The notes beneath the pieces are model-generated. The model saw only the letters and a list, made by a program, of their open reading frames with translations, was not told where the DNA came from and searched no databases. This document shows, in pieces, positions 1,137 to 64,000 of a stretch of DNA of 64,000 nt. Within the stretch, counting starts at the first letter, position 1, and the number at the start of each line of letters is the position of its first letter. The translations under genes were made by a program, and so were the position numbers. This stretch comes from Abditibacterium sp. (GTDB lineage: Bacteria > Armatimonadota > Abditibacteriia > Abditibacteriales > Abditibacteriaceae), in assembly GCA_965199495.1 (NCBI GenBank), contig CBDASK010000003.1, positions 2,432,001-2,496,000 of the forward strand. Reading direction: 5' to 3'.

Positions 1137-3779
1137 TTATTTCACCGTCGCCAGTCCCATATCAATATATTGGCCGCCGCCGGTTTGATGAACGTGAACG
1201 GCGAACACATTTTTGCCCGGCTTGAGCGTGGCTTTGGCGCGCGCACTGATGATGAACGGCTCGTATTTGCCGTTGAAACCTGTCGCCTGTGTCGCCAGAA
1301 CGCCATTGATGTAAACATCGGCGTCTTCGTCGTGAAACATCAACAACTGCAAATCGTCGCGATTGGCGAGTTGCGCCGCCGTCATGGTGAATTCGCGGCG
1401 CGCCCAAATGTCGGGCGTGTCCCAGTTGGTGCGGACGTTGCCAGCGCTTTTGCCCAGTCCGCCTTCGCCGGTTTTCCAGCTCGTCGCGTTGTAATCGGCG
1501 GCGAACCAATCGCCCGCCGGTTTGGTCGTGGTGTAATTCCACATCACGCCGCCTTTCTCCGAAGTCGGCACGACGCTGGTAATCACGGGCGCCGCCGGAA
1601 TCGGCGCCCAGTTGAAGTTGATCCCTTTCGAGGCCGCGATGTCGCGCTGCGCCCATTTGTTCCAGATTTGCTTGTTGTTGAGCATCGGCATGAACACGCC
1701 GCCAACCGCCGAACGCGCCTTGAAGTTGACCTGCGTGCCCTCGATGGTGCGATACCAATCGGTCATCGGCACGCGCGAAGGCGATTCGTTGAGGAAATCG
1801 TAAACCGGTGCCACCAACGCCTCGACATCGGCTTTTTTGCCCGTCAGCGCCGCGCTCCACAACGTCCAATCCAATTTGGTGTAAGTTTCGCGGCTGTCGA
1901 GCGGCAGACCGTAACGATTGAGTTTGGTCTTATAATAGGCCATCTCGGCTTCGTCCACGCTGGCGGGGAACAGGTCAATGCCCAGAATTTTATCCCACAC
2001 GATATTATATTTCTGGCTCCAGGTGCCCGATTTATCGAACGCCAATTTGTAGTGATCGCCATCTTTGGCCGCGTCTTGCCACTGCTGGCTCATGCCCTGC
2101 GCGATTTTGCGCACGCGCTCGCTTTCGGCACCATCGCCGCGCATTTTCGCCATCATCGCATAGGCGCCCAGCGCTTCGATGGATTTGCCCGACAGGTTGA
2201 CGTTGTGCGCCAGATGTCCGGCGAAGTCGTCGGTCGAAAGCTGATTGTCCAGATCGTAACCTTTGCTGATGAGGAAATTCGCCCATTTGGTCAGCGTGGG
2301 CCAATAGCGGTCGGCATATTTGGTGTTGCCCTCGACCTGCGACAAAGCGCCCATCAAAATCAGCATATTGCCGCTTTCTTCGACCGGCATTTTGCCCGAA
2401 ACATCGCCGTTATCGGGGATGCTTTCGCCGCCGCCGTAGGTCATGCCGGTGGCTTTGGGGTAGGTGCCGAGATCATGCGGCGCAAAGTCGAACGGCCAGC
2501 GTGCGCTACTCGAATAGAGCATAGTCGGCTCCATCGTCGCTTTGAGTAGAGTTGGCGAGAGCAGCAACATCTGCGGGCTGGCTGGATACATCAAGTCAAC
2601 GGTGCCCGCCGAGCCGTTGGAGTTATTTTCTTTGGAAATCGAGAGCGGCGCGCCGTTATCGTCGGCCACGATTTTCTGCGCCGCCAACGCCTCACGATGC
2701 GCCAGTGCGCACAGGCGCGCGAACTTCTCGCCACCCACCGAACGCAAATCGGTCATCAATTCGTTATCAAAGGCAATCGCACGCGTGTTGAGACTGATGT
2801 AATCTTTGGCCGCGACGCTCAAAAGTCCCAAAGCGTCCATGCCATTGCGGCGCCAATAGGGCCGCAGATTGCGGCCCATCCAGTTGAGCGAATATTCGTC
2901 GTCATAGGCGACCATCAGGGTGCGCGAAACCGGCTGCGCGCCGACTTTGCCCGCATCGAGCGCGATGGCAGCCACGGGCGCGTCGTCGGCGATTGTGGGC
3001 GTGGAAGCGACATCCGAAGTCGGCAATTTGCCCGATTTGCCCCACGCCGCTTGCGCATCGGCGCGCGAAACCAAGGCACTGCTCAAACCGGCCTGATTGG
3101 GCGCCGCCAGATAAAGATAGCCCCAGTCAATGCGCACGTCGTCGCCCGTTCGAGCCAAAATCGGTTGGTCGGTCGAGCCAATTTTCAGCGCGGTAATGTC
3201 GCCTTTGGAGGCGCGTTCCCAGCTCACTTGCTGCGCGCGCGCGTCGTTGACGGTGATGTCGGCGTCAGCGTCGGCGTAAAACTGCACGTCGTGTTTTTGG
3301 CCGTCGAGCGAGCGCACCAAAAACGTCATATAAGTCACGGGACGCGCCAGAACTTCCAGATCGGACGGAATCGCGGGCGTTAAGAAAACCAGTTGCACCT
3401 GAACTTTGTCGTTCCCAAACGTGTAAATCGTGCGCGTCGGCAACACTTCGAGTTTGGTTTGCGGCAGCGACGCCGATTCGGCGGGTTGCGTGCCCATCAG
3501 GCGAAAGGTCTGGCCGTCCACGCGCGCCATTGCGCTCAGACTGTTCTCACGGCCCGTCCAGTGGCGCGTCTCGTCACTGTAAAGTTTGTTGGAATTCGAC
3601 CAGATCGAAAAATACGGATCGTGCGCGGCTATCGGCACCGATGGTGGACGGAGCGGCGGCAGATTGTCGCTCATTTGCATTGCGTTTTGCGCGCACGATG
3701 CCGAAGCAAAAACCACAGAAGCCAACGCGCAATTCAAAGAGAGCGTGCGCAGTGAGGAAGGATGTGTTTTGAAATTCAT
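1137..3779 (-). CDS. Glutaminase-A-like (DUF4965/DUF5127-type, six-hairpin glycosidase fold) secreted protein with C-terminal galactose-binding-like domain
   Basis: Signal peptide; family motifs RPPSVPI..HDPYFSIWS, SKENNSNG, MPVEESGNM, QLSTDDFAG, WSQKYN; C-terminal W..R.F...HDEDADVYING domain. Confidence 0.85.
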   Translation of the reverse strand: MNFKTHPSSLRTLSLNCALASVVFASASCAQNAMQMSDNLPPLRPPSVPIAAHDPYFSIWSNSNKLYSDETRHWTGRENSLSAMARVDGQTFRLMGTQPAESASLPQTKLEVLPTRTIYTFGNDKVQVQLVFLTPAIPSDLEVLARPVTYMTFLVRSLDGQKHDVQFYADADADITVNDARAQQVSWERASKGDITALKIGSTDQPILARTGDDVRIDWGYLYLAAPNQAGLSSALVSRADAQAAWGKSGKLPTSDVASTPTIADDAPVAAIALDAGKVGAQPVSRTLMVAYDDEYSLNWMGRNLRPYWRRNGMDALGLLSVAAKDYISLNTRAIAFDNELMTDLRSVGGEKFARLCALAHREALAAQKIVADDNGAPLSISKENNSNGSAGTVDLMYPASPQMLLLSPTLLKATMEPTMLYSSSARWPFDFAPHDLGTYPKATGMTYGGGESIPDNGDVSGKMPVEESGNMLILMGALSQVEGNTKYADRYWPTLTKWANFLISKGYDLDNQLSTDDFAGHLAHNVNLSGKSIEALGAYAMMAKMRGDGAESERVRKIAQGMSQQWQDAAKDGDHYKLAFDKSGTWSQKYNIVWDKILGIDLFPASVDEAEMAYYKTKLNRYGLPLDSRETYTKLDWTLWSAALTGKKADVEALVAPVYDFLNESPSRVPMTDWYRTIEGTQVNFKARSAVGGVFMPMLNNKQIWNKWAQRDIAASKGINFNWAPIPAAPVITSVVPTSEKGGVMWNYTTTKPAGDWFAADYNATSWKTGEGGLGKSAGNVRTNWDTPDIWARREFTMTAAQLANRDDLQLLMFHDEDADVYINGVLATQATGFNGKYEPFIISARAKATLKPGKNVFAVHVHQTGGGQYIDMGLATVK

Positions 3780-3806
3780 GAATAACGGAAGAATCCGAGG
3801 ATAAAC

Positions 3807-3838
3807 AAAATGAACTCGCCGTCTGGCGAGTTCATTTT
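3807..3838 (-). terminator. Rho-independent terminator-like hairpin downstream of the sulfatase
   Basis: aaaatgaactcgcc-gtct-ggcgagttcatttt. Confidence 0.6.
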
Positions 3839-3983
3839 AGCTGTCTTTGAGTTTTCTCAGAGGAAGAGAAATTTAGAGCGTTTTTCAAAGCTATGGTTGC
3901 TCAATTTTCGCTGAGGAAAATAGTTTGATCTGATGGTTCTTGACCAAAAGCGGTGCCAACTTCAGTCGAGCGCCACAGCAAAA

Positions 3984-6062
3984 TTATTTGGTTTCGACTT
4001 TCACATTTTCGACTTTGCCGCGCAACGAAAATGGCGCCGTATATTCGCCGACAGCGCTCATTGTGTCTTCGCCAACGCTCAAACCGTCGGTCGGTTGCGT
4101 GGTGAAAACGCCGGGCGCTTTGCCGGTGGCTACTGTTTTACCGTTGATTTTTAGCGTCATGGCGCCGGTTTTATCGAGGCGCGCTTCGACCGAAAACTTG
4201 CCTGTGGGCACCTTTTGAGTCGCGGTCGCCAGCGACAAAACCTGATTTTGGCGCACGCCGAAATTCGGCACGCCGTCTTGCAAATACACAACGTAGCCGC
4301 GCTCTCTGCCGCCCTGCGCCACAATCACGCCATTTTGCGCGTTGGTCGTCACGTCGGCGGAGATGGTCAACGCCTTGTTCACCAATTGCGGCGACGGCTT
4401 GGCGATGACCATCGAATTTTGCGCCCAGGTTTCCCAGTCGGCGGCCATTTTCTTGGCGCGCGCGGGTTGCGCCGCCGTTTGGTCGCGCATTTCGGTCGGG
4501 TCTTGCGCCAGATTATAAAGTTCCCACGGGCGGTCGTGAATCGCCACCAATTTCCAGTCGCCCTCGCGCACCATGCGATTGCCTTCGTGTTCGATGAATT
4601 GCGGACGCGCGGGCAAAGTCGCGCCGCCAAACGTCGGAACCAGACTCACGCCCTGTTCCGGTATGATGTTGAAACCGTTGAACTCGTCGGGATACTTCGC
4701 GCCACTAACCTGCAAAACCGTCGGCATGATGTCAATCAACGAGCCGGGTTGTGAAGTACGAGTGCCGGGTTTGGCCGTCAAACCATTGGGCCAATGCACG
4801 ATCAAAGGCGTGCGAATGCCGCCCTCTTCGGCGTAATGTTTATACAAACGCCACGGCGTATTGCTGGCGTTGGCCCAGCCACTGCCATAGGAAACGTAGC
4901 TGCCGGGCGCGCCGATCTGCTTCAAATCGTCGCCTTTGTGCAAAATATTAAGCGGCGAATCCAGCTTGTCGAAACCAAACGGATCCCACTCCGCACACGC
5001 GCCATTATCGCTCAAAAAGAAAATCAGCGTGTTGTCATATTGGCCGGTTTCTTTGAGATGCGCGACGACGCGTCCGATGTTGCGATCCATCACTTCGATG
5101 GCCGCCGCGTAAGTCGCCATGCGGCGTGCCAAATCTTTCTGGCGGTCGGCGGGCAACGTGTTCCACGCCGGATTTTCTTTGTCGGCCCAACCGGTCTGCA
5201 CGTTGATAAAGTTTTTGGGCACTTCGCTGCGCGGCGTTAGTTCGAGGTTTTGCGGCACCAAGCCCAACTTTTTCTGGCGCGCCAGCCGCTCGGCGCGAAT
5301 TTCGTCCCAGCCCTTCTGATAAATCGTGTCGTATTTATCAATCACATCGGCGGGCGCATGGAGCGGAAAGTGCGCGGCGTTGAAAGCCAGATATTGAAAC
5401 CACGGTTTATTCTCGCGCTTGCCCTGATCAATGAAATCAATCGAGTAATCGCCAAAGGCGTTGGTCGAATAATATTGGCCGGGTTTGTAATCAATGGCCG
5501 GATGACCGGCGGGCAAACGGATTTGATAGGGATGCTCTTCCCAGTAGGAATTGAAGCCGCCCAACATACCGTAAAACTCCTGAAACCCGCGATCCACCGG
5601 CGTGCTTTGCTCGCTGAGATGCCACTTGCCGACCATCGAAGTCGCGTAGCCGTTGCCATCGAGGATTTCGGGAATCGTCACGGCGTTTTTGCTGATCGGC
5701 TGGCCCAATCCGGGCACGCCCGCCTGATGCGGATACAAGCCGGTCAGCAAACTGGCGCGCGTCGGACTGCAACGCGGCGTGTTATAAAAATCGGTAAAAG
5801 TCAGACCACTGCCCGCAAGCGCATCAATGTTGGGCGTGCTAATTTCGCCGCCCATCACGCCGATATCCGACCAACCCAAGTCGTCGGCCAAAATGATCAG
5901 CACGTTGGGTTTCTGCGCGTTAGGCGCGGGTTTGGGATTGATTTGGGCCACAGCCTGAGTTTGCACGGTTTGCGCGTTGCAACCAGCCACGGCGAGCGCG
6001 CTGGTTAGTCCGACAGTCAAAGCCGCGAACTGGCGCCGCGTTAAAAGTTGATTTTTGATCAT
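3984..6062 (-). CDS. Arylsulfatase (formylglycine-dependent), Tat/lipoprotein signal
   Basis: PNVLIILADDLG, CSPTRASLLTG (CxPxR), GKWHL, SDNG motifs; N-terminal TRRQF...LAVAGC. Confidence 0.92.
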   Translation of the reverse strand: MIKNQLLTRRQFAALTVGLTSALAVAGCNAQTVQTQAVAQINPKPAPNAQKPNVLIILADDLGWSDIGVMGGEISTPNIDALAGSGLTFTDFYNTPRCSPTRASLLTGLYPHQAGVPGLGQPISKNAVTIPEILDGNGYATSMVGKWHLSEQSTPVDRGFQEFYGMLGGFNSYWEEHPYQIRLPAGHPAIDYKPGQYYSTNAFGDYSIDFIDQGKRENKPWFQYLAFNAAHFPLHAPADVIDKYDTIYQKGWDEIRAERLARQKKLGLVPQNLELTPRSEVPKNFINVQTGWADKENPAWNTLPADRQKDLARRMATYAAAIEVMDRNIGRVVAHLKETGQYDNTLIFFLSDNGACAEWDPFGFDKLDSPLNILHKGDDLKQIGAPGSYVSYGSGWANASNTPWRLYKHYAEEGGIRTPLIVHWPNGLTAKPGTRTSQPGSLIDIMPTVLQVSGAKYPDEFNGFNIIPEQGVSLVPTFGGATLPARPQFIEHEGNRMVREGDWKLVAIHDRPWELYNLAQDPTEMRDQTAAQPARAKKMAADWETWAQNSMVIAKPSPQLVNKALTISADVTTNAQNGVIVAQGGRERGYVVYLQDGVPNFGVRQNQVLSLATATQKVPTGKFSVEARLDKTGAMTLKINGKTVATGKAPGVFTTQPTDGLSVGEDTMSAVGEYTAPFSLRGKVENVKVETK

Positions 6063-6080
6063 GGAAATTCTGGGGGCCGA

Positions 6081-6134
6081 AGAAAGAACGAAAGCCTTAA
6101 AGAGCGAACCTCTCCAAGGCTTTTCGTTTTTTCT
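6081..6134 (-). terminator. Imperfect hairpin directly downstream of the prepilin-like gene
   Basis: agaaagaacgaaagcctt ... aaggcttttcgttttttct. Confidence 0.45.
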
Positions 6135-6150
6135 GCCAACGGGTTAGTCA

Positions 6151-6930
6151 TTAGTCAACCAGACGAAACGTCGGGCTGGTGCCGGAAGTGGCAAACGGTG
6201 TGGCTCCGTTGTAAATCGTGGTGGTGCTGTTGCTGTTGATGTTTTTAAACCACTTCACATGGCCATCGGAAAAGCCGTAGTTGGCGCCTTCCAGATGGCG
6301 AAAGCCGCCGCCCGCCAAGTTCGTCGCCAGACCGGGGCCGCCACAAACGGGCTGAAAACGGTCGAAAGGAGCGGCGCCCCCCGGATCGCCCGCCGTCGCG
6401 CATCCGTTGTTGCGTTCGCGCGCATTGGAGTGCCCGTTGATGCTCTGGCCAGCAGGCGCGCCGCTATCGCCCACCAAAATCGTCAATGTCGGATTGTTGA
6501 GCGAAGGCAACGCCTGCGCGCCATCGCCCGCGTTTTTGTTCATGAAATAATCGGTGTAGCCCGCCGAATTCGGATTGGAGTTGGGCGGCGCTGGCTCGCT
6601 GGGACACTGATAAATCTGCGTGCTTTTCAGGTAGGGCTGAATCGCGTCGGCCCAACCCACTGTCGCGCCAGCGGGCGCATTGCCGGGGCCGAGCCATACC
6701 ACCGAAAGCGGGAAATGCTCGTCGTAATCCTGCGTATACTGCGCGAAACCCAGACCCATCTGTTTGAGATTGCTCTGGCAACTGGCACGGCGCGCGTTTT
6801 CGCGGGCACGCGCGAAAACCGGAAACAGAATCGCCGCCAGAATCGCGATTATCGCGATAACAACGAGAAGCTCGATCAAAGTGAACGCGTGAATTTCATT
6901 GCGCTTGCGCGCGATTTGAATGTTTTTCAT
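6151..6930 (-). CDS. Prepilin-type N-terminal cleavage/methylation domain protein with DUF1559 and H-X9-DG motif
   Basis: [51 protein letters not shown]-terminal [17 protein letters not shown]. Confidence 0.92.
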
Positions 6931-7131
6931 AGCTCTAACCCAAAAATACCGACTTCTTTCAGATCTTACGATTTATCAAAAATTGCGAAAAAATCACCGC
7001 AAAAAACAGCATTGATAAATTTGAGGGTCGGGGAACTCGCTTATAGTAGAACACCGATTTTGATGACAATCAATGAGAATTCAAGTCAGTCAACTGAGAT
7101 TTTTTGTTATTGTATGGGATGATTATGAATA

Positions 7132-8337
7132 TTAATTTTTGAGTTGTGTTGTGAGTTGTGTCGCGCGCCATTGCGAGGGCGTTTGGCCGAAAGTTTTCTT
7201 GAATTGAACCATCATATATTCGGAGTGTTCGTAGCCGGTGAGTTCGGCGATGCGAGCGAGCGGCAAATCGGTTTCGCGCAACAAGTTTTGCACGCGCTGG
7301 AGGCGCACGCGGCGAATTTCCTGTTGGGGCGAGCAACTGAGCAAACGCCGAAACGTGCGCTCCAAAGTTGAGCGCGACATCCGCACATGAGCCGCGACTT
7401 CTTCGACCGTGAGCGCGTCGCAGGCGCGCTCGCGGATGAAGTGGAGCGCGCGCGCAATCGCCGGATCGTTGACCGTCCAGATGTCGGACGATTGGCGCGT
7501 CACAACTTCGAGCGGCGCCAAATAAATCTGCGCGGGCGCCGTTTCCTTTGGCGGGGTTTGGGCGTTCATCAGGCGCGAGAGCAGGGCGGCGGCTTCGTAA
7601 CCGATCTGTTCGGAATTTGGCACCACGCTCGAAAGCGGCGGATCGCACAAATGGCACAGCAGTTCCGAATTATCCGCGCCCACAACCGCGACCTGTTCGG
7701 GCACAGCTACGCCCAATAATCGGCAGGTATCGAGCAGGTGTTGGCCGCGCAAATCGTTACAGGCCACGATGCCAACCGGAAAAGTCAGCGTTTGAAGCCA
7801 TGCCGACAAAAGCGCGCGTTCTTCGTGCCAGTTGCGATTATTTAAATTCCACGGCGACTCGAAAACGCCGTGCAACTCGGCGCTGGCGCCACGCGCTGTT
7901 TTCAGCGCTTTCAGCGCGCCCGCGTGGCGTCTCTGCGACCAAGACTCCTCGGCAAATCCGCAATTGGCGAAGCCGCAATAGGCGATGCGCTCGAAACCGC
8001 GTTCGAGCAGATGGCGCGTGGCCATCGCGCCGATGGCGTCCATATCGGAAGCCACGCGCGGCAACCCCAGAAACCCGTAACAATCGTTGAGGTCAACCAC
8101 CGCAAGCGGGCGCTTAATCAACTCCTCGGCTAACGCGGGGGTCATCAAGCGGCAAATAATGCCGTCGCCGTTCCAATCCAACAGCCACTTGGGCGAGTGC
8201 GCTTTGTGGTCGCGTTCGCTGAAGAACACCGACCATTGCTCATGGGCGTGCATATAGCGCGAGACGCCGCGCAAAATCTGGCGCCCGTAGACGCCCGAAG
8301 TTTCGATAATCAGCGCGACGTTAGCTCGTTTTTTCAT
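7132..8337 (-). CDS. XylR-type transcriptional regulator (LacI-like sensor plus AraC HTH)
   Basis: Periplasmic-binding-like N-domain (VAVVGADN..LC.LCDPPLSSV); AraC HTH (MSRSTLERTF...IAELTGY...FKKTFGQTPSQWR). Confidence 0.9.
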   Translation of the reverse strand: MKKRANVALIIETSGVYGRQILRGVSRYMHAHEQWSVFFSERDHKAHSPKWLLDWNGDGIICRLMTPALAEELIKRPLAVVDLNDCYGFLGLPRVASDMDAIGAMATRHLLERGFERIAYCGFANCGFAEESWSQRRHAGALKALKTARGASAELHGVFESPWNLNNRNWHEERALLSAWLQTLTFPVGIVACNDLRGQHLLDTCRLLGVAVPEQVAVVGADNSELLCHLCDPPLSSVVPNSEQIGYEAAALLSRLMNAQTPPKETAPAQIYLAPLEVVTRQSSDIWTVNDPAIARALHFIRERACDALTVEEVAAHVRMSRSTLERTFRRLLSCSPQQEIRRVRLQRVQNLLRETDLPLARIAELTGYEHSEYMMVQFKKTFGQTPSQWRATQLTTQLKN

Positions 8338-8383
8338 GCCGTGAGTTTAATCAGCATAAAATTTATTCGCACTTAAATCTCTG

Positions 8384-8737: not shown

Positions 8738-8740
8738 GAT

Positions 8741-10624: not shown

Positions 10625-10717
10625 CGGGGTTAAGCGAGTTTGTCGTAAAGTCCCGCTTATTTCAGGCATTTTTTTGACAGCGTTTTGTTGTGTGACCTTT
10701 TTCGTGATGCCCACCAT

Positions 10718-10854: not shown

Positions 10855-10893
10855 GCGAAATTAAAGCTCAAGTTCTTCCGCTATCCTTTCTTC

Positions 10894-12707: not shown

Positions 12708-12721
12708 TTGTTGGTGCTTGC

Positions 12722-53417: not shown

Positions 53418-53457
53418 GCGGAAAAGCGGACGATAGTTTAGCCCGCACTTCGTTGGT

Positions 53458-54786: not shown

Positions 54787-54997
54787 AAGTGCGGCTCCTC
54801 CGTGGGCATAACGAGAGCGTTCATAAAGTGAAAAACCTTAGAGGTTATACTCTTTTTTCGCGCGTTTCGCCATCAGGAAATCCACAATTCTCTCCGCAAA
54901 TGAAACGTAATCCATCGGTTTTCTGACATCAAATTCCTCCGTTCTCACGCGTCATGAAGCCGACAAAATTATCTATAATTTGCCGCAGAATTTCCTT

Positions 54998-56857
54998 ATG
55001 TTTCGTTTTTCCTCGTTCACAATTCTGTTGCCTGTTCTGCTTTGCCTCGCGGTCTGCAAGGTGCCGCAGATTCGGGCGCAAACCGCAGAGAAGCCAGCCG
55101 CGTTGCCGCCCAATCAAGCGGTTTTGGCGTCCGACGCGTTGGAAAAAATCAACTGGCCCAACGCGCAAACCTTTGATGTGAACGGCCAAACTTTCGCGCG
55201 CGCTTTGCGCGTGCGCGTGCCGCCAACCCAGGGCGAAAGCAACGCGGTTCAAATCACGATTAACAACGGCGCGCCCGTGAAAAAAGGCGATGTTTTGCTG
55301 GCGACCTTCGCCGCGCGCGGACAAGCCACGGCGCGTGAACCGGGCGCAGAGGCGGGCGCGGCGCAGATCATGTTTCTCTTCGAGGGCAGTTCCGAGCCGT
55401 GGACGAAAAGCGTGACGCGCGGTATTTCGCTGCCGAGCGCAACCGTGTGGCGACGCGTCGCGATTCCGTTTGTCGCGCAGCAAGATTATGCGACGGGCGC
55501 GGCGATGGCCTCGTTGCGGCTGGCGTTTGGCGAGCAAACCATCGAACTCGCCGATTTGCAAGTGCGCGATTTTGGCGACGCCATTTCGCTCGAAAAAATG
55601 CGCGCAATCGCCGCCAATCTGTCGCCTTTGGGCGCGCTCGATGTGACGATAAACGCGGCACACACGCGCCAGACGATGCGCGGTTTGGGCGGTAACTATA
55701 CGGCTGGCGGACGCGAAGGTTGGGGCACGGTCAACGACCATGTCGCGCAATATACGCGCGCCCATCTTCATCCGGTTCATGCGCGCCTTGGTTTTTCGCT
55801 CAAGTTGTGGCAACCCCAAGCCGGTGGCTCGTTCGTGACGGACGGAAAAAACGGCGAAGTGTTGAAAATGGCGGGCGAATTCGCCGCCCGCAAAGTGCCG
55901 ATGACGGCGAGTATTTGGGAAGCGCCCGCTTGGATGACGACTAACGAAGGCGACCGCAAAATCATTCCCGAAGCGCAGTGGGACGCGGCGATTAACGCCA
56001 TCGCGGCGTTTTTGGAGCGCGCGCAAAAACAGGGCGCGCCCATCGAAACGCTGTCGTTTAACGAAGCCGATTGGGGCGTTGATATTCACTGGGCGCCCGC
56101 GCGTCTGGCCGCCTTTATCAAGCGCGCCGCGCCCGAATTCGCGCGGCGCGGTTTGAAGACAAAATGGCTCGTCGGGGACACAACCAGTGGCGCGGCTCTG
56201 GTGGATTACGCGCGCCCACTGCTCGAAGACGCCGAATTGCGCCCATTTCTGGGGCCAATCGCCTTTCATGGCTGGGACGCGCTGGGCGCCAGCGACGCGA
56301 CTTATCGCGCGATTTACCAATTGGCCGCCAAATACCATCGCGAAGTCTGGTGCCTCGAAGCCGGTTCGGACTCGTCGGCGTGGCAACTCGATCCGAAAGT
56401 GTGGCCGACATGGAACTACGCGCTCGACGTGGCTGTGGTCTACGCCGTAACTATCGCCGAGGCGCGCGCGAGTGTCGTGGATTATTGGACGTATCGCGAC
56501 GATTATCCGCTCGTTGACAAAGATAATCAGCCCTATCCGGTTTTCGGGGTTCTGCAGCAATTCAATCGCGCGTTTGGCGCGGGCACGCGAATCGTCGAAG
56601 CGAACGCGCCCAGCGCCGACTTGCGCGTCTTAGCGGGCGTCAAACCCGATGGCACAACGGTGGCAATGCTGATTAATCCCATCGGCGCCGGGCAGGTGAC
56701 ATTGCGCGGATTGAAACCCCATTCTACCGTGACATTCACACTTTCAGACGAAAAAGGGCAGGGCGTGAAATTTTTTGAACAATCAACTGTGAGCGCAAAC
56801 GGCGCCGTCATTTGCGCGTTGCCCGCGCGTTCGATAATGTTTGTCCAAACAAAGTAA
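54998..56857 (+). CDS. Secreted clan GH-A (GH30-like) glycoside hydrolase with an N-terminal CBM-like domain
   Basis: Signal peptide; jelly-roll-like N-domain; QTMRGLGG, SFNEAD (acid/base), AFHGW, WCLEAG (nucleophile), LPARSI C-terminal sandwich. Confidence 0.68.
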   Translation: MFRFSSFTILLPVLLCLAVCKVPQIRAQTAEKPAALPPNQAVLASDALEKINWPNAQTFDVNGQTFARALRVRVPPTQGESNAVQITINNGAPVKKGDVLLATFAARGQATAREPGAEAGAAQIMFLFEGSSEPWTKSVTRGISLPSATVWRRVAIPFVAQQDYATGAAMASLRLAFGEQTIELADLQVRDFGDAISLEKMRAIAANLSPLGALDVTINAAHTRQTMRGLGGNYTAGGREGWGTVNDHVAQYTRAHLHPVHARLGFSLKLWQPQAGGSFVTDGKNGEVLKMAGEFAARKVPMTASIWEAPAWMTTNEGDRKIIPEAQWDAAINAIAAFLERAQKQGAPIETLSFNEADWGVDIHWAPARLAAFIKRAAPEFARRGLKTKWLVGDTTSGAALVDYARPLLEDAELRPFLGPIAFHGWDALGASDATYRAIYQLAAKYHREVWCLEAGSDSSAWQLDPKVWPTWNYALDVAVVYAVTIAEARASVVDYWTYRDDYPLVDKDNQPYPVFGVLQQFNRAFGAGTRIVEANAPSADLRVLAGVKPDGTTVAMLINPIGAGQVTLRGLKPHSTVTFTLSDEKGQGVKFFEQSTVSANGAVICALPARSIMFVQTK

Positions 56858-56890
56858 TTCCAAATCGCATCGCCACTATTTACTCAATCC

Positions 56891-58780
56891 ATGCTTTCTC
56901 CCACTTCTTCCACTCCGACGACCGGCACTTTGACCGACGCGATTTTGCCGGTCGCCTCGGCCAATTCCAACGAGTTGCTCGTCGAACTTTCGCAGACTTC
57001 GCTCGCCGAGGCCGACGAAATTCTCAAGGCCACGCTCGAAGAAGCGATGCAAGCCGTCGGCGGCACGCGCGCGTTTCTGGCCTTAGTTGACATGGGTTCG
57101 GGTGAACTCGCGCTGCGCTTCACCACGGGCGAAGGCTGGACGGACGAGATTCGGCGGCGCCGCGTCAACGTCGAAAACGCGGCGCATATCGGCAGCGCGC
57201 GGCGCGGCATCACGCGTCACGTCGTGGTCAACAGCAAGCCCTATTGGACGGGCGATGTGCTGGCCGACCCGCATTATATCGGCTTTTTCGACGACGTGAA
57301 ATCCGAAATCGCAATGCCACTGCGCAGCTCGAACGGCGGTACGATTGGCGTGATCAACATCGAATCGCCCGACGCCGATAAGTTCAACGATTCGCACATC
57401 GAAGTTCTGGCGCCGCTCTGCCGCCGCGCCGCGATTATCGTGGCAATGGCCGAGCATCAATTGCGCGAGGAAGCCTTGGTCGCCATTGGCCGCGATTTGA
57501 ACTCCGCCGCCGATCTGGAAATGCTGATTCACGATGTGGTGAATCAGGCGACGAAAATTCTGCGCGCCGAAGATTGTTCGCTGTTTCTGATGGACGAGGC
57601 AGGCGAAATGCTCGAACTCGTCGCCTCGCAAGGCCCGCTCGATAAAGAATCGGGACAGCACACGGTGAAATATCGGTTGGGCGAGGGTTTGACCGGTTGG
57701 GTCGCGCAAAATGGCCGCGTGATTCGCGTGGGCGACCCGCGCACCGATTCGCGTTGGAAGGGCGTTTTCGAGGAAGCGCCGCCCGCCGAAACCGCCGCTT
57801 TGATGGCCGTTCCCGTTCACACGCAGCGCCAGAAAACCGGAGTTTTGCGCGTGGTGCGCCATCGCAAAGGCTCGCTCTATTTTTTGCCGCAAGAGTTCAC
57901 TCAGGCCGACGAAGACATTCTGGTCACGCTGGCGGGCCAACTCGCCGTGGCTATTGATCGGACGCGACTCACCGAGCGGCTTTTGGGCGCCGAACGCATG
58001 GCCGCCTGGGGCGAAATGAGCGCGCGCGCCGCGCACATGATCGGCAATACGGTGTTTGGCGTCAAAGGTCATCTCAACGAACTGAATTACGTTCTCAAAG
58101 AAAGCGAAAAAGACGATGAAGAATGGACGGACGTGAAAGAACTGACCAGCCACGTCACGCGCGGCTTATATCGTTTGGAAGGGATTTTAGGCGAATTTCG
58201 CGATTTCGTGCTGGCGACGCAGCTTCATACGGTTCAAAGCGACATCAACGGAATTTTGAGTAACGTCACCAAAGAAACTTTTCCCAAGCACACCGAAATT
58301 GATTTGATTTTGAGTCTCGCGCCCGATTTGCCGCCGGTTCTGGCCGATGAAGTGAAACTCAAGCGTGCCTTTGGCGAACTCATCGAAAACTCGATTGATT
58401 TTCAGCCCGAAGGTGGCCAACTCACGGTGAAAAGCTCGCTTACGACACAAAAAGCTATCGCTCATCTGACGCGGGCGCAGTTCGCCACGCCGATTGTGCG
58501 CATTGACTTTATAGACCACGGCCCCGGTCTGAGCGAGCAAGACCGCGCGCGCGTTTTCCAGCCGTTTTATACCAAAAAAGCCAAAGGCATGGGATTGGGA
58601 CTTTCGATTGTCAAAGGTATTATCGAGGCGCACGGTGGCGCGATTTTAGAAATCGGCAATGAAGACGAATTAGGAAAAGGCGCGCATTTCGTGGTGTTTT
58701 TGCCGACGGTGAGCGGCAAAGAACGGCGGCCCCGCCACGAAAATAATGGAAGCGGCAAGCAGGAGATGGAGAAAAGCTAA
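56891..58780 (+). CDS. Soluble GAF-GAF sensor histidine kinase
   Basis: Two GAF domains; AHMIGN H-box; ELIENS, DHGPG, FQPFYT, GMGLGL. Confidence 0.9.
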   Translation: MLSPTSSTPTTGTLTDAILPVASANSNELLVELSQTSLAEADEILKATLEEAMQAVGGTRAFLALVDMGSGELALRFTTGEGWTDEIRRRRVNVENAAHIGSARRGITRHVVVNSKPYWTGDVLADPHYIGFFDDVKSEIAMPLRSSNGGTIGVINIESPDADKFNDSHIEVLAPLCRRAAIIVAMAEHQLREEALVAIGRDLNSAADLEMLIHDVVNQATKILRAEDCSLFLMDEAGEMLELVASQGPLDKESGQHTVKYRLGEGLTGWVAQNGRVIRVGDPRTDSRWKGVFEEAPPAETAALMAVPVHTQRQKTGVLRVVRHRKGSLYFLPQEFTQADEDILVTLAGQLAVAIDRTRLTERLLGAERMAAWGEMSARAAHMIGNTVFGVKGHLNELNYVLKESEKDDEEWTDVKELTSHVTRGLYRLEGILGEFRDFVLATQLHTVQSDINGILSNVTKETFPKHTEIDLILSLAPDLPPVLADEVKLKRAFGELIENSIDFQPEGGQLTVKSSLTTQKAIAHLTRAQFATPIVRIDFIDHGPGLSEQDRARVFQPFYTKKAKGMGLGLSIVKGIIEAHGGAILEIGNEDELGKGAHFVVFLPTVSGKERRPRHENNGSGKQEMEKS

Positions 58781-58837
58781 AGCATAAAAGGAGAAATTCT
58801 ACTTTTTATTCTCTATCCTTCGGCTTTCATCCTTTCT
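58771..58837. repeat. Short degenerate heptamer palindrome
   Basis: gaaaagctaaagcataaaaggagaa ... ttctctatccttcggctttcatcctttct. Confidence 0.4.
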
Positions 58838-58862
58838 CCGTGCCATACTAAACCGTTCAATT

Positions 58863-59324
58863 ATGGGAAAAATTTTAGTGGCCGACGACGAAGATGATGT
58901 GCGGCTTTCGCTCGAACGCAGACTGCGGCGCGATGGACATAATGTCACCATTGCTGGCTCCGAACTCGAAGCGGCGCGCGCCATCGAAGACGCGCCGGTG
59001 CCATTTGACGTAGTTTTGACCGATATGCTGATGGAATCGCCCAATTCGGGCGTCGAAGTTTTAAAGTCGGCGCTGGCGCGCGACGTGTTTACCGAAGTCG
59101 TGGTTCTGACGGCTTATGGCAACGTGACCAACGCCGTCGAGTGCATGAAAATGGGCGCCTTCGATTACATCGAAAAGAACATTCCCGGCGTGGATGTTTA
59201 CGAACTCATCTCGATTAAGATCGAGCAAGCGTTGGAACGACGCCGTTCGAGTTTGTCAACGGTGCGCCGCCTCGAATCGTTCGCCAAAGTCCGCGAAATG
59301 CAGGACGAACACGGCGGAAATTAG
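58863..59324 (+). CDS. Single-domain response regulator
   Basis: ILVADDE, VLTDMLM, LTAYG, AFDYIEK; no output domain. Confidence 0.9.
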   Translation: MGKILVADDEDDVRLSLERRLRRDGHNVTIAGSELEAARAIEDAPVPFDVVLTDMLMESPNSGVEVLKSALARDVFTEVVVLTAYGNVTNAVECMKMGAFDYIEKNIPGVDVYELISIKIEQALERRRSSLSTVRRLESFAKVREMQDEHGGN

Positions 59325-59382
59325 AAGTTAGAAAATGGAAGTTGTCGCGCGACGTGGCTGCTTCTGACCTCTCAAAAGAATC

Positions 59383-59817
59383 ATGGAAGACGAACCTCTG
59401 GAACCGTTGCCTTTTGGCACGCGCGTAGAAATCGGCGGGCGCACGATGCTGCGCCCCGGCTTTTCGCTCGTCGGCTTGACTGGCATGGTTTATCTGCAAT
59501 CGCCCGGCACGCCGCCCGGCTGCACAACGGTTATTGTTGACTGGAAATCGCACGGCTACACGCCCGAAGGCGGCTATCCCGAAGACAGTTTGCCGCCGAT
59601 GGTCAACGTGCCGACCCAACATTTGACGATTTTCGAGGGCGAAGTCGAAGAACCCGAAGTCAAAGCCAAACCGAAATTCGTGCCGCGCCCCGACCGCATT
59701 GACCCGCGCACCGGACGCCCCGCCGACGAAGGCGCATCGGCGCCCGCGCCAACACCAGCCACGCCGGAAGACAAAGACGACGATGAGCCAATACGCCCGG
59801 CGTTGCGGCTGGTTTAG
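59383..59817 (+). CDS. Hypothetical protein
   Basis: 144 aa ORF with codon style typical of the window, followed by a terminator; Pro/acidic tail. Confidence 0.65.
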   Translation: MEDEPLEPLPFGTRVEIGGRTMLRPGFSLVGLTGMVYLQSPGTPPGCTTVIVDWKSHGYTPEGGYPEDSLPPMVNVPTQHLTIFEGEVEEPEVKAKPKFVPRPDRIDPRTGRPADEGASAPAPTPATPEDKDDDEPIRPALRLV

Positions 59818-59831
59818 AATGTCAGGCGCAC

Positions 59832-59870
59832 AAAAATGGCGATTGAAACTCAGTTTCAATCGCCATTTTT
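59832..59870. terminator. Bidirectional terminator
   Basis: aaaaatggcgattgaaact-c-agtttcaatcgccattttt between convergent genes. Confidence 0.8.
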
Positions 59871-59873
59871 TGT

Positions 59874-61034
59874 TTAAACGCCCTGCGCGCGCGCCGGGCG
59901 CGTGCCCGCTTTCAAATCATATTTTTGCGTTTTGCCGTCGCTCCACACTTCGACGCTGAGCGGCGCGCCCGGCTTGGCGCTACCAATTAAATTGCGCAGT
60001 TCGCCCGGCGTATCAATTGTTTTTCCGTTGATTTTGGTGATGACATCGGTTCCGCGTTGGCTCCACGGCACCGCTCCGGCGGGCGATTGCGGATAGACGC
60101 CCGTGACCAAAACGCCGTCTTGCAAGCCCAGTTGGTCGCCGATGTCGCCCGTGAGCGGTTGAACCGTGACGCCCAGCCAACCGCGCGTGACGTGGCCGGT
60201 GGCTGCTAACTGCGCGCCGACCGAGTGCGCCAGATTCGCCGGAATCGCCAAGCCGATGCCTTGGTTGCCGCCGCTTTCGCTCAAAATCGCGGAGTTGATG
60301 CCGACCAAATCGCCGTTAATATCAACCAACGCGCCGCCCGAATTGCCGGGGTTAATCGCGGCGTCGGTCTGCAAGAAATCTTCGTAAGCCGAAATACCCA
60401 GATCGCTGCGGCCCTTCGCCGAAATGATGCCTTGCGTCACCGTCGAACTCAAATTGAACGGACTGCCAATCGCCAAAACGATGTCGCCGACGTTGATTTT
60501 GTCGGAATCGGCCCAATTCAAAGTCGGCAAATTCGAGCCTTCGATTTTCAGCATGGCGATGTCGGAATCGGCGTCGGTGCCCAAAAGTTTGGCGGTGAAA
60601 CGGCGCCGGTCGGTCAGCGTGACCGTTATGCGCGTCGCGTTTTTGATGACGTGATTGTTGGTCACGATCAGGCCGCTACCGTCGATAATGACGCCCGAAC
60701 CCAGCGATTGCGCTTTTTGGTCGGGTTCGCGCAATGGGCGCCCGCCGAAACTGCCGTCGCCGAAGAAATCGCTCATCGGATCGCGAAAAACGCGGCCCGG
60801 AATCACGCTTTCCGATTGGATATTGACAACGGCGGGCGTGACCTTGCGCGAAATCTGCGCGTAAGTCGAGGATAACGCCGCCAAATCGTCGGCGTTACGG
60901 ATGGTGTTTTGGGCTTGCGCGGTTTTGTTGATCGAATTGGAATTATGTTGCGCGCAGGCACCAATGACAAAAGAAAGAGCCGCAACTCCCAAAACGGCGG
61001 GCACCAGACGAGGGGAACGAGAATGAATTTTCAT
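59874..61034 (-). CDS. HtrA/DegP-family serine protease with one PDZ domain
   Basis: GSGVII, TNNHV, DIA, QTDAAINPGNSGGAL, RGWLGV. Confidence 0.93.
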   Translation of the reverse strand: MKIHSRSPRLVPAVLGVAALSFVIGACAQHNSNSINKTAQAQNTIRNADDLAALSSTYAQISRKVTPAVVNIQSESVIPGRVFRDPMSDFFGDGSFGGRPLREPDQKAQSLGSGVIIDGSGLIVTNNHVIKNATRITVTLTDRRRFTAKLLGTDADSDIAMLKIEGSNLPTLNWADSDKINVGDIVLAIGSPFNLSSTVTQGIISAKGRSDLGISAYEDFLQTDAAINPGNSGGALVDINGDLVGINSAILSESGGNQGIGLAIPANLAHSVGAQLAATGHVTRGWLGVTVQPLTGDIGDQLGLQDGVLVTGVYPQSPAGAVPWSQRGTDVITKINGKTIDTPGELRNLIGSAKPGAPLSVEVWSDGKTQKYDLKAGTRPARAQGV

Positions 61035-61145
61035 GGCGGGCAGGTCGGCTCAGATTTGGTGCCGAGATTTGGGTTGGAAAGTTCGCCGAGCGCTTTGTGA
61101 CGCGCAGGTGCGCGGAGATTTGTGGAGCGCAGTGACGTTTATTCC

Positions 61146-63014
61146 TCAACCTTTCTCGACCAAATACGCCCGCGCCCCAAACTTCACCACATCGCCAATA
61201 AGCAAAGCTGTCGGCGCGTTCGCCGCCAGCTTGCGACTATTAACGAACGTGCCATTGGTCGAACCCAAATCGGTCACGATCAATGCTTTTGGCCCGATTT
61301 GCAAGCGCGCGTGGCGCGACGAAACGCCCGCGTCGGCGATGATTAAATCGTTGTCCGCCGCGCGTCCGAGAGTTAAAGTTCCGCTCGCGGGCAAGTTCAA
61401 CGCGGGTTCGCCGCGCAGTCGCCACGAAGCAGCCACCGGCATCGGCTCGGCGACGATTGGCGGTTGAATCGGCGCGGTTTGAACTGGAATCGGTGCGCGT
61501 GGCTGGATGGGCGCGGCGCCCGCGCCTTCGAGATAGAGCGTGATTTCGACGTTGCCGAAACGGCGCGTATCGCCGTTTTGGAGCGGGCGCGTTTGGCCGG
61601 TGAAATCGGTCAAAGTTGGGTGCCCGCCCTCAAAGGCGTAGCGCGCGGCGACGGCGGGGGCTTCGCGCGTGAAGATGCGACATTTGCTGCGGTCACTGCC
61701 AACGGCTAACGGCTGCGCGCCCAGACTAAGGTCGAACGCGTCTTTGGGACCATAAGAAACGTGCAGATAGGCTTTGCGAAACGCGACTTCGGCCCAGACG
61801 ACCATCGCGCCGATGGCGAAACCCAAAATCGTGGCGCCCAGCAAACGGCCCGTCACATCGTTGGCAAAACGCGCGGCCAAAATAAACGCCATCGCGCCGA
61901 TCCAGCCGCCGCCCGCGCCGCCCAAAATCGCGCGCCACGCTTGCAGATTGGGCACGAACGGCGCGAGGCCCGCGCCCAAGAGGGCGCCGCCCGCCGCCCA
62001 CGCGACCAGACGGCTGAGCGTGATGGTGAAGTTGTTATCGCCCGCGCCCGAAAAAATCAGTTGCCCCAGCAAACCGGCGACGCATCCGGCACCCAAGCCC
62101 GCCGCCATGCCGCCGATTTCGGCCCAGCCGACTTTGCGCCGCGTGGTGCGACTTTGTATGCCAATTAAAGCGATGGAGGCGCCCAATCCGACCAATGCCG
62201 CCCAGACCGCCGTGCGCGTCCATTCGAGCGCGGCGTCGTAGTTCGCGACGGCGTGCGATTGAATCATCGCGCGGCCTTTGTTGCCGGTTAAGGCTTGTTC
62301 GGCGCGCTGAAACGCTTCGCCGAAACTGCCCGCCGACGCGGCAAAAACTAAATTGGGATCGCCCGTTAATTGCGCCAGATAATCTTTGTCGGCGTCGTCG
62401 GTGCCAATCGCCACGATTTTCATCCCCGAACTCCGCGCGCCCTGCGCGACTTTTAACGTTCGAGCAACGGGATTGACATTCGTGCCATCGTCGTTCGCAC
62501 CGTCGGGATAGCCGTCGGTAAACAGTAGGATATTGCGCGCTTCGGTCGTCTGTTTGGCCGTGCCCGCGAGGGCGAGTTGCGGCGTTTGCGGCAAGGCGCC
62601 GACGGCGCTTTGCATTCCCAAATCCATGCGCGTCGAACCGTCCACGCTCAGACTGTCAATCGCGCCGTGGAGCGCCAGAGGGTCACGCGAAAGCGGGCTG
62701 ACGACGCGACTTTGCGAGTTGAATTCGATGACGGCCACGCGGGCGGTCGCGAAATCCTGCCGGTCAATATAAGCGTTGGCGGCGCGCTTCATTTCGTCGA
62801 GGGAACCGAACATCATGCTGCCCGATGTATCCAAAACCAGCGCAACAGCTTGAGGCGGCGCGGGCGGCGGCGGTGGGGGCGGCGGTGGAGGCGGCGGCGC
62901 GGTGAGCGCCAGAAATCCCTCGCCCAGCGCCGCGAAAAGCAGCGTGCCCAGCGCGGCGGTCGCGCCGAAAAGCATCGGTTTTTTCCAGCGGTTGTGGCGA
63001 GAGGGCGATTGCAT
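61146..63014 (-). CDS. vWA domain + multi-TM + degenerate FHA + FHA protein
   Basis: Polyproline linker; DTSGS MIDAS and TDG; about 5-6 Gly-rich TMs; GRAADND..VSSRHA..DLGSTNGT. Confidence 0.88.
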   Translation of the reverse strand: MQSPSRHNRWKKPMLFGATAALGTLLFAALGEGFLALTAPPPPPPPPPPPPAPPQAVALVLDTSGSMMFGSLDEMKRAANAYIDRQDFATARVAVIEFNSQSRVVSPLSRDPLALHGAIDSLSVDGSTRMDLGMQSAVGALPQTPQLALAGTAKQTTEARNILLFTDGYPDGANDDGTNVNPVARTLKVAQGARSSGMKIVAIGTDDADKDYLAQLTGDPNLVFAASAGSFGEAFQRAEQALTGNKGRAMIQSHAVANYDAALEWTRTAVWAALVGLGASIALIGIQSRTTRRKVGWAEIGGMAAGLGAGCVAGLLGQLIFSGAGDNNFTITLSRLVAWAAGGALLGAGLAPFVPNLQAWRAILGGAGGGWIGAMAFILAARFANDVTGRLLGATILGFAIGAMVVWAEVAFRKAYLHVSYGPKDAFDLSLGAQPLAVGSDRSKCRIFTREAPAVAARYAFEGGHPTLTDFTGQTRPLQNGDTRRFGNVEITLYLEGAGAAPIQPRAPIPVQTAPIQPPIVAEPMPVAASWRLRGEPALNLPASGTLTLGRAADNDLIIADAGVSSRHARLQIGPKALIVTDLGSTNGTFVNSRKLAANAPTALLIGDVVKFGARAYLVEKG

Positions 63015-63028
63015 GGAGGAAAGTAAAA

Positions 63029-63237
63029 CGCGTTTCGGTTAGTTTGCTCTGTTCTCTCGCTTCGCTTTGTCATTCTGAGCGGCGTGAGGAACGAACGAAG
63101 TCGAAGAATCCATAACTCTCGATGAAGTGAAAGCGAAGTTCAGTCACGACCGATGGATTCTTCGACTTCGTTCGTTCCTCACGCCGCTCAGAATGACAAA
63201 GCGAAGCGAGAGAACAGAGCAAACTAACCGAAACGCG
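63029..63237. repeat. Palindromic element family A, copy 3, nested in longer arms (about 84 bp perfect inverted repeat)
   Basis: cgcgtttcggttagtttgctctgttctctcgcttcgctttgtcattctgagc...gaatcca and exact reverse arm. Confidence 0.9.
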
Positions 63238-63283
63238 CTCACAGGGACAATGAACGGCAGGCGTCATGGCTCGAAATTTAGAA

Positions 63284-64000
63284 TTACAAAGCCCGCAACG
63301 CGAAGTCGAGTTTGCCCAATCGCACGCGGTCGCCGACGTTTAATTTGCGCGCGACGTTCGGCGCCAACTTCTCGCCGTTGACGAAGGTGCCGTTGGTCGA
63401 ACCCAAATCGGTCAGTTGCAGCGCGCCGCACTGCCATTGCACTTGCGCGTGGCGCGACGAAACGCCCGCATCGGCCACGACAATCGCGCTATTGGCCGTG
63501 CGCCCGATTGTCGCGGGTTGCTCGCACTTGGGAATCGCGAGGCTGTGGCCTTGAAGCGACAAAAACGCGAAATTTGGCATCGTCGCGCGAATCGTCGGCG
63601 CGTTGGCCGAAACGGACGCGGGCGCCGTGGCTGCATCGGGCGCGGCCCAACCGGCGACCGTTTTCGCGTTAGAAGTTGCGGGCGAATTGGCGGGCGGCGC
63701 GTAAATTGGCGCGGCGGTAGGCGATGGGTAAGTGGGCGTTCGCGATTTACTTGATTTCGATTGAAAGCGAAATTGGGTGGCGCCGATTTTTAGCGTGTCG
63801 CCCGGCGTTAAGGGCGCGTTCTCGCACGCGACGCCGTTGATTCCAATGGCCTCGCCCTGCCAAAACCATTGGCCGTTTTGCGAAACTAAGGCGCCCAATT
63901 TGGCGGGCAAATGTGTGTCACGAAACAGCGAAATCGCGTTCGATTCGTCGCGACCAACCGAAACGCGCGCCGTGTTGAGCGGATATTCTTTGCCCTCGTA
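63284..64000 (-). CDS. Tandem-FHA protein, 5' end beyond the window
   Basis: Frame open to the edge (YEGKEYPLNTARVSVGRDESNAISLFRD...); degenerate FHA, Pro/Ala linker, canonical FHA (GRTANS..VSSRHA..DLGSTNGT). Confidence 0.85.
   Translation of the reverse strand, partial: YEGKEYPLNTARVSVGRDESNAISLFRDTHLPAKLGALVSQNGQWFWQGEAIGINGVACENAPLTPGDTLKIGATQFRFQSKSSKSRTPTYPSPTAAPIYAPPANSPATSNAKTVAGWAAPDAATAPASVSANAPTIRATMPNFAFLSLQGHSLAIPKCEQPATIGRTANSAIVVADAGVSSRHAQVQWQCGALQLTDLGSTNGTFVNGEKLAPNVARKLNVGDRVRLGKLDFALRAL

Follow-up and report, generated by a model that had tools for sequence, protein, structure and literature searches.

A short non-palindromic word, evenly spaced on each strand of the Abditibacterium sp. 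chromosome, is a candidate DNA-uptake sequence

To our knowledge, only two families, both in the Proteobacteria, have established sequence-specific uptake tags, and the role of the highly iterated palindrome HIP1 (GCGATCGC) is not settled. For DNA uptake sequences (DUS) and uptake signal sequences (USS), lineage dialects and close inverted pairs have been described (PMC3630211, PMC7811141), spread by biased transformation has been proposed (PMC7811141) and ComN has been predicted as the USS receptor (PMC12616744); HIP1 is reported to increase transformation efficiency. Here we analyse a dispersed word with the core AGCCACG, which was noticed in a stretch of 64,000 nucleotides from Abditibacterium sp. 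(GenBank assembly GCA_965199495.1, contig CBDASK010000003.1, positions 2,432,001 to 2,496,000; hereafter the window), that is, in a phylum different from that of the USS and DUS carriers, whose words are unrelated to it. The source genome (G000; G and L numbers are our labels for genomes and loci) comprises three contigs with 4.81 Mb in total, and the window is G000:C3:2432001-2496000. An earlier note on this DNA had proposed that the 9-mer GCAGCCACG might be a DNA-uptake sequence or HIP-like motif, a Chi-like or nucleoid-protein site, or a methylation-driven iterated motif. A literature search that included the motif words and lineage names, with most subscription papers outside its reach, found no description of the word or of such words in Abditibacteriaceae.

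In the window, the 9-mer occurs in 21 exact copies (7 on the plus and 14 on the minus strand), compared with 0.97 +/- 0.98 and a maximum of 4 in 100 dinucleotide shuffles, and the core AGCCACG in 63 copies where 8.83 are expected and the shuffle maximum is 17. The earlier count of at least 19 9-mers therefore holds, although two copies had been overlooked, and the reported enrichment of the core is real, although the estimate of about 50 cores was too low. The window genes are ordinary housekeeping and metabolic genes, and sequencing-run data agree with the window sequence. The same enrichment is found chromosome-wide: the 4.72-Mb chromosome contains 4,533 copies of AGCCACG (2,256 on the plus and 2,277 on the minus strand), AGCCAC is the top over-represented 6-mer (2.07-fold, z 60 under a maximal-order Markov model), and CAGCCACG and the 9-mer exceed an order-3 expectation 13-fold and 23-fold, respectively. 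The consensus (A)(G)(C)AGCCACG(S)CG is non-palindromic, and the preference is graded around AGCCAC (A at -3, 0.41; G at -2, 0.45; C at -1, 0.59; on the 3' side G, 0.71, followed by G or C, C, 0.64, and G, 0.57), with only a mild G+C preference in the flanks. The 9-mer is thus only part of a graded word that extends over about 13 bases. The lack of a conserved unit past these bases and the location of 4,108 of the 4,533 sites in genes do not fit a repetitive extragenic palindrome (REP) or mobile repeat.

Genes were called with a simple self-trained caller (3,678 genes, 82% coding), which places the 4,108 genic sites at a density of 1.06 per kb and 404 further sites between genes (0.48 per kb). 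All six frame and strand classes are occupied in chromosomal genes (162, 406 and 1,787 sites for CGTGGCT; 392, 128 and 1,233 for AGCCACG), in agreement with the earlier observation of different frames and both strands, and the peptides most often encoded by the motif are AVA, AAT, GVA, DVA, AWL and SHA. The remark that the motif uses uncommon codons is also borne out, as alanine after C-GTG (valine) is encoded by GCT in 59% of 3,010 cases, compared with 10% GCT overall. The enrichment persists when synonymous codons are shuffled within each gene, a null model under which, according to the earlier note, a spurious signal should disappear: 4,108 7-mers were observed versus 721 expected (5.7-fold) and 1,609 9-mers versus 93 (17-fold), and 19 one-letter variants reach 0.2- to 1.5-fold under the same shuffle. 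A stricter dicodon null, conditioned on the previous codon and the next amino acid, leaves an excess of 1.84-fold for the 7-mer and 2.89-fold for the 9-mer, and is partly circular because it was trained on motif-bearing genes. Chance, codon bias and peptide bias are ruled out by the dinucleotide and synonymous-codon shuffles. The related genome G011 retains 180 of 268 aligned G000 sites (eight control words, 20-56%), and G004, which uses a longer variant, only 39 of 185. In motif-free congeners, 198 of 368 residues under the motif codons are identical, where 234 would be expected on the basis of neighbouring occurrences of the same amino acids (P 1e-4); they are thus less conserved, which indicates that the word overrides protein sequence. 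Selection at the DNA level, as the earlier note had supposed, is therefore shown by the codon null, the conservation of sites in G011 and the amino-acid cost at the sites.

The word shares with Chi (read by RecBCD or AddAB) and with the FtsK-orienting polar sequences (KOPS) that it is a polar, strand-read, over-represented short word. We located origin and terminus of G000 with GGGNAGGG, which we take to be KOPS-like. With respect to the replichores AGCCACG is split 2231:2302 (0.492, P 0.30) and the KOPS-like word 299:81 (0.787) on the same chromosome; the 9-mer is slightly biased (827:953; 0.465, P 0.003). There is no leading-strand skew and no orientation flip at origin or terminus, and the word is therefore not a canonical Chi or KOPS; the Chi-like idea of the earlier note fails in this form also because no RecBCD- or AddAB-like pair was found in the carriers.

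Instead of a replichore bias, the sites show a pronounced order along each strand. Neighbouring chromosomal sites are of opposite orientation in 2,799 and of the same orientation in 1,733 cases, and the resulting alternation of 0.61-0.62 places the motif words at the extreme of 198 similarly abundant 7-mers (median 0.48, best unrelated word 0.54), as does the evenness of their spacing. The pair correlation on the same strand is 0.15-0.6 below 500 bp and rises up to 1 near 1.5 kb; on opposite strands it is about 1 above 30 bp and 1.6-2 below 30 bp, where inverted pairs lie. The gap hazard flattens near 2 kb, and the pair spacing in G000 has no periodic peak outside the exclusion zone up to 10 kb. 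For CAGCCACG, 20, 46, 69, 130 and 192 same-strand pairs were observed in five bins from 40-150 bp to 750-1000 bp versus 106, 144, 191, 236 and 233 expected, and 106, 116, 208, 236 and 274 opposite-strand pairs versus 113, 153, 202, 250 and 247. Exclusion tracks site strength (0.20 for strong-strong, 0.63 for strong-weak and 1.0 for weak-weak pairs), and G011 shows the same strand-specific exclusion. Avoidance of deletions between close direct repeats was rejected as an explanation, since differing pairs are excluded as strongly as identical ones (0.13-0.28 versus 0.16-0.19) and other frequent 10-mers are undepleted (4.4-fold, a value inflated by repeats). Isolated sites are kept better in G011 than others (84 of 108 versus 96 of 160, P 0.002), an advantage seen as well for sites isolated from those on the opposite strand (44 of 57), and sites specific to G011 stand to nearby G000 sites in a same-to-opposite ratio of 12:9 where the latter were lost and 12:31 where they were kept (P 0.03). 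The per-strand exclusion and this turnover indicate that each strand holds its own saturating series: the word is read in one orientation, and each strand independently requires a copy about every 2 kb, in the core chromosome only. Close inverted pairs are over-represented (85 versus 41 expected in G000, mostly inside called genes; 36 versus 2.9 in G004), and most copies in G017 are paired.

The restriction to the core chromosome is seen in DNA of other origin in the same assembly. Contig C1 is a plasmid of 24.7 kb with a ParA match and C2 a resident tailed phage of 64.6 kb with genes for a terminase, a Mu-type portal, a head protease, a major head protein and a protein of 2,400 amino acids. 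In both, the density of CAGCCACG is 0.08-0.09 per kb, compared with 0.65 per kb in the chromosome, and the 7-mer is found 8 times versus 4.0 expected in C1 and 12 times versus 9.7 in C2. The depletion in acquired and low-GC genes that the earlier note had named as a check was indeed found: genes below 45% GC contain 0.29 sites per kb, genomic islands are poor in the word as well, and the CRISPR array has a single site in its 8.7 kb. This CRISPR-like array, at G000:C3:2766484-2775007, consists of 131 repeats spaced 63-67 bp apart. Three motif-poor regions make up 6.8% of the chromosome, and none of the sample alignments of G011 (242 kb) and G004 (195 kb) lands there. Two viral scans with 119 loci each, all lacking a host link, yielded no contig with host-like motif density. 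C1 and C2 avoid the same palindromes as the chromosome, which strongly avoids TTCGAA, GCCGGC, CCGCGG, CGGCCG, CTCGAG, GTCGAC, GGWCC, CTAG and GTAC. The 16S gene contains one weak core; only one such gene was found (G000:C3:1860971-1862487), and as a protein gene is called about 2 kb beyond it, the rRNA genes may be unlinked.

The word is confined to few genomes and changes between them. Whole-genome counts of CAGCCACGSCG are 1,692 in G000, 1,392 in G011, 413 in G004 and between 7 and 73 in the remaining 28 of the 31 genomes of the class. Fetched samples of 3-420 kb per genome (6 kb for G033 and 3 kb for G034) were scanned de novo, which revealed a word at about one per kb in 10 of 27 family genomes, three with AGCCACG types and seven with AGTAC-core palindromes and paired words. 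The word of G004 is GACACCAGCCACGTCCTAC, with a consensus over 19 bases and frequently in inverted pairs; G035, G033 and G034 have TCGAGTACTCGA (coefficient of variation of the gaps 0.54-0.65 in G035), G032 and locus L005 GAGTACTC, G014 TGCAAGTACTTGCA, G018 CAAAGTACTTTG, and G017 AGTACGGTCGA, mainly as pairs 15 bp apart. The words of G014, G018 and G032-G035 are palindromic, those of G000, G004, G011 and G017 are not. No comparable word was found in samples of 20-81 kb from the other 17 family genomes, in which a weaker word could escape, or by a gapped-word scan of six AddB-less motif-free genomes. In a four-protein FastTree tree of 26 genomes, with weak support among the deeper genera, G000, G011 and G004 make up a clade with a support of 1.0, placed within the genus between AddAB-bearing clades, and the AGTAC carriers fall into a larger group without AddB, to which six motif-free genomes belong as well (deep support weak). 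The word thus turns over between lineages. All ten carriers have a single UvrD/PcrA and neither an AddB-like protein nor an AddA-type second UvrD; among motif-free congeners, the latter is present in ten of ten and an AddB-like PD-(D/E)XK protein in nine of ten, the two adjoining in seven. The label AddB-like (826 amino acids in G009) was inferred from domain, size and cysteine pattern. G000 (95% complete) has one UvrD-family match and no AddB-sized PD-(D/E)XK protein, with RecC- and RecB-specific models not run separately. As the AGCCACG clade lies between AddAB-bearing clades, loss of AddAB and gain of the word map to one branch there, and the coincidence of the two amounts to about two independent events, not ten.

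As a control with a proven uptake sequence, we collected 73 metagenome loci, each centred on an inverted pair of the USS core of Pasteurellaceae. No USS-bearing control was found among 200 Gammaproteobacteria. Of the 73 loci, 49 passed a filter for length and density, and 46 of these (714 kb) remained without redundancy; paired sites were removed. Between 40 and 300 bp, 8 same-strand pairs were observed versus 28.3 expected (Poisson P 7e-6), and 30 opposite-strand pairs versus 28.9. A proven uptake sequence therefore has the same strand signature at shorter range, which supports the uptake reading, and the signature alone is no pointer to Chi. In these Pasteurellaceae-type contigs (L198-L270), USS exclusion is same-strand only and extends over about 300-500 bp; our literature search found no paper that states this. 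Karlin reportedly found each USS orientation to be evenly spaced. Even USS spacing as such is credited to Karlin et al. in one later paper (PMC1939737).

G000 is equipped for natural transformation as far as gene content indicates: G000:C3:861101-880963 encodes pilB, pilT, pilC, pilD, four minor pilins and two large pilus-associated genes, and comEA, an 859-amino-acid comEC and dprA are all intact. The same genes are found in nearly all relatives irrespective of the word (ComEC domain in 30 of 31, DprA in 25 of 27 and ComEA domain in 20 of 20 searched genomes), with exceptions in the motif-free G012 (a comEA frame of 62 amino acids) and G038 (split frames). ComEA, ComEC and DprA were rejected as readers of the word because their presence does not follow it, and the four minor pilins of the operon because they are not basic and do not follow it either. 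One of these four, of 607 amino acids (G000:C3:868625-870448), is only 48% identical between G000 and G011 despite their common word. Its neighbours are 76-95% identical between these genomes, and this pilin is possibly under diversifying selection, as a phage receptor or adhesin. Also rejected were a Dna2-like nuclease-helicase, found only in G000, G004, G011, G017 and the motif-free G016, and NurA, found in one of five genomes. The former is a Dna2/NAM7-like helicase-PD-(D/E)XK nuclease fusion of 1,420 amino acids (G000:C3:4111371-4115615; L143:3608-7882) that is split in G011. The G000 chromosome carries about 40 DUF1559-type prepilin genes. One of these pilins, at G000:C3:2782760-2783359, is strongly basic (net charge +15; five database homologues +7 to +12), compared with at most +2 for 82 pilin frames in the fetched loci; it is present in G000 and G011 (87% identical) beside a neutral paralogue, and its structure model is poor (predicted local distance difference test score, pLDDT, of 45). 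This basic DUF1559 pilin may be regarded as a weak lead for the receptor.

Taken together, the signal is real, selected and genome-wide, and the uptake-sequence or HIP-like class from the earlier note's list fits the tests that were run. The strand-specific exclusion, the dialects of the family and the coincidence with AddAB loss go beyond that note. On balance, we lean towards reading the word as a self tag specific to its lineage, of the same type as DNA uptake sequences and maintained by transformation drive. Like USS and DUS, it is a graded, non-palindromic word at about one per kb and equally frequent on both strands, it is written into genes at amino-acid cost, forms close inverted pairs and lineage dialects, is scarce in acquired DNA, and is accompanied by intact type IV pilus, ComEA, ComEC and DprA genes and by the strand-specific exclusion seen in the USS control. 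A sequence-specific component of competence, either a pilin at the tip of the pilus or a factor encountering the single strand on its way through ComEC, would bind the word in one orientation, and the bound word would favour uptake or integration of the marked strand or arm. A new copy could then spread among kin through biased transformation, a form of molecular drive, as long as its strand is not yet served by another copy within about 1-1.5 kb. The palindromes of G014, G018 and G032-G035 and the inverted pairs of G004 and G017 would each cover both strands from a single place, and plasmid, phage and accessory DNA, if not swapped by homologous transformation among kin, would not build up the word. 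Loss of AddAB was perhaps permissive, in that linear DNA would survive longer, but this is a guess.

Several observations weigh against a self tag for uptake. The word is depleted rather than enriched between genes in G000 (0.34-0.42 versus 0.72 per kb in genes), and only 17 inverted pairs are intergenic, unlike the terminator bias reported for DUS and USS. By most of the sequence tests run the word behaves like an uptake sequence, but its distribution between genes in G000 does not clearly fit one. Isolated sites of G004 show no clear strand-specific exclusion, albeit in small numbers because many sites form inverted pairs. The presence of competence genes is not discriminating, because motif-free relatives are mostly intact too; no protein among the profiled candidates tracks the word, and the basic pilin was not found in G004 or in the AGTAC-type genomes searched. 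Published uptake data show no effect of USS orientation (PMC1939737), and given such orientation-blind uptake the strand-specific exclusion of USS itself lacks an explanation. The palindromic dialects look more like HIP1 than like DUS. Further differences from USS and DUS are the GC-rich flanks in G000 without AT-rich flanking segments, the wider exclusion (1-1.5 kb versus about 0.3-0.5 kb), the mixture of palindromic and non-palindromic words in Abditibacteriaceae, the lack of a demonstrated ComP- or ComN-like receptor in the carriers, and the lack of an AddAB-like pair in carriers, RecBCD being discussed as present in Pasteurellaceae (10.1101/2025.10.24.684340).

Among the alternatives, an internal polar recombination signal that replaced AddAB-Chi is rather unlikely in our judgement. 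At two-ended breaks, caused for example by drying, a RecJ/RecQ/UvrD-type or other resection machine would stop, or load RecA, at the first correctly oriented word, and each direction would need its own evenly spaced series without replichore bias, which agrees with the strand-specific saturation. The distribution of AddAB described above fits this, including the single branch on which the AGCCACG clade lost AddAB and gained the word, and RecJ and RecQ-like genes are present in G000; a partly Chi-like role has been proposed for HIP1 (10.1101/2024.09.10.611283), and parts of recBCD are missing from model HIP1 cyanobacteria (PMC5101192). However, only about two independent losses of AddAB are involved, and no such word is seen in 20-60-kb samples of five other AddAB-less genomes (G016, G031, G036, G037, G038) or in 80 kb of G013, which has no AddB match and an extra UvrD frame of 1,225 amino acids. 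Furthermore, the USS control yields the same strand signature, no enzyme that was profiled, neither the Dna2-like one nor NurA, follows the word, and the host-adapted plasmid and phage lack its enrichment. We also consider it unlikely that the Abditibacteriaceae acquired the word at least twice, following AddAB loss, as a licence for recombination that is read per strand by a protein acting on incoming or resected single-stranded DNA; if true, uptake sequences, HIP1-type palindromes and Chi-like signals would be versions of one per-strand coverage rule, and USS would also be directional after binding.

Comparison with HIP1 bears on two further ideas. Like HIP1 and the alternate HIPs, the word occurs about once per kb, lies in genes and is swapped for other words in some lineages, and the AGTACT palindromes of the relatives contain the probable target of a family-wide orphan methyltransferase; unlike HIP1, the G000 word is non-palindromic, and the one methyltransferase profiled across the genomes does not follow it. 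The orphan beta-class enzyme (G000:C3:1807695-1808396) is found in 22 of 27 family genomes, broken in two, and was the sole lead among the best 70 of 212 matches in a transferred-gene scan of G000 proteins against sampled AGTAC-type DNA. The ratio of observed to expected GTAC is 0.00-0.12 in ten sampled holders without an AGTAC word (0.32-0.56 in G013, G015 and G031) and 0.41-0.79 in four of five genomes without the enzyme, the exception being G004 with 0.08. The near-absence of GTAC in most holders suggests GTAC as its target, and the AGTAC dialects may be among its substrates. In Elhai's HIP1 model, a site marked by methylation guides mismatch repair and thereby drives up its own frequency; a saturation at about one per kb, as observed, follows from this model (PMC4390886, section 3.4), and the enzyme follows the avoidance of GTAC, which lies at the centre of all seven AGTAC-type dialects. 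If the methyl mark were on one strand only, each strand would have to carry a series of its own. For AGCCACG such a ratchet is nevertheless improbable. The word lacks GTAC and the enzyme was not found in G004, so that the enzyme was rejected as the reader; the graded consensus extends over about 13 bases (19 in G004), which a methyltransferase site would not; and the resident plasmid and phage, which would share a mutation bias, show no enrichment. Moreover, divergence from G011 at four-fold sites stays at 0.27-0.30 over distances of 15 bp to 2.5 kb from a motif copy, without 5'/3' asymmetry, and G004 gives the same picture, so that no zone of protection by mismatch repair is seen; with the profiled methyltransferase not following the word either, the methylation-driven motif of the earlier note loses support. 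More improbable still is a directional site of chromosome architecture, at which a translocating nucleoid, SMC or replication-restart protein would be stopped or loaded, under organism-level selection. The even per-strand spacing, the confinement to the chromosome and the higher frequency in genes than between them agree with it, and the periodicity of HIP1 has been interpreted in this way (PMC5861425). Yet the word changes rapidly between related genera and is absent from 17 of 27 sampled family genomes, which is unusual for core architecture, and neither a periodic peak up to 10 kb nor a candidate protein was found.

Along the window, the 63 cores form a dispersed array on both strands (845..63634, about one per kb), in which 41 of 62 neighbouring pairs are of opposite orientation. 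Each of the 19 positions given earlier for the 9-mer is exact. On the plus strand, GCAGCCACG is located at 2968..2976, 16642..16650, 26606..26614 (within nirB), 34615..34623, 43607..43615, 48845..48853 and 51147..51155 (within a KDO transferase gene). The minus-strand copies are at 9173..9181 (within a ClC-type channel gene), 10959..10967, 27273..27281 (within murD), 31878..31886 (within a cysteine desulfurase gene), 33804..33812, 38896..38904, 44117..44125, 48628..48636, 52213..52221, 53962..53970 (within an NRAMP transporter gene), 59353..59361 and 63626..63634; the two overlooked copies, both also on the minus strand, lie at 14490..14498 within an RND permease gene and at 24817..24825 within a nitrate reductase gene. 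The copy at 59353 was rightly called intergenic, as it falls between the called genes 58863-59324 and 59383-59817. Two AGTAGCCACGCC only 17 bp apart on the plus strand (21397..21425) are a rare exception to the exclusion. The recA gene (47061..48143, minus strand) serves as a lineage marker only; identity is 80-83% for the top four RecA matches, of which three bear the title Abditibacterium, Abditibacteriaceae or Abditibacteriota, and 56-64% for the next. Two other repeats were seen. An intergenic 47-nt inverted repeat at 42117-42262 belongs to an AT-rich family with about 50 blastn matches in the genome, and several sequencing-run contigs have loose ends at 42124-42125; REP-like inverted repeats starting with GTAG (GTAGAGACACC...) occur at 161 places on G000:C3 (e.g. 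83229 and 83313), their arms often 84-86 bp apart.

With ten carriers, six or more words of palindromic and non-palindromic type, and motif-free genomes closely related to the carriers, the Abditibacteriaceae are a family in which reader and function should be findable by genome comparison and transformation assays. The strand-specific exclusion is a measurable constraint on the mechanism and applies to Haemophilus-type USS, too. If the word is indeed an uptake tag, it would also open the way to genetic tools for a phylum of which few members have been cultured.

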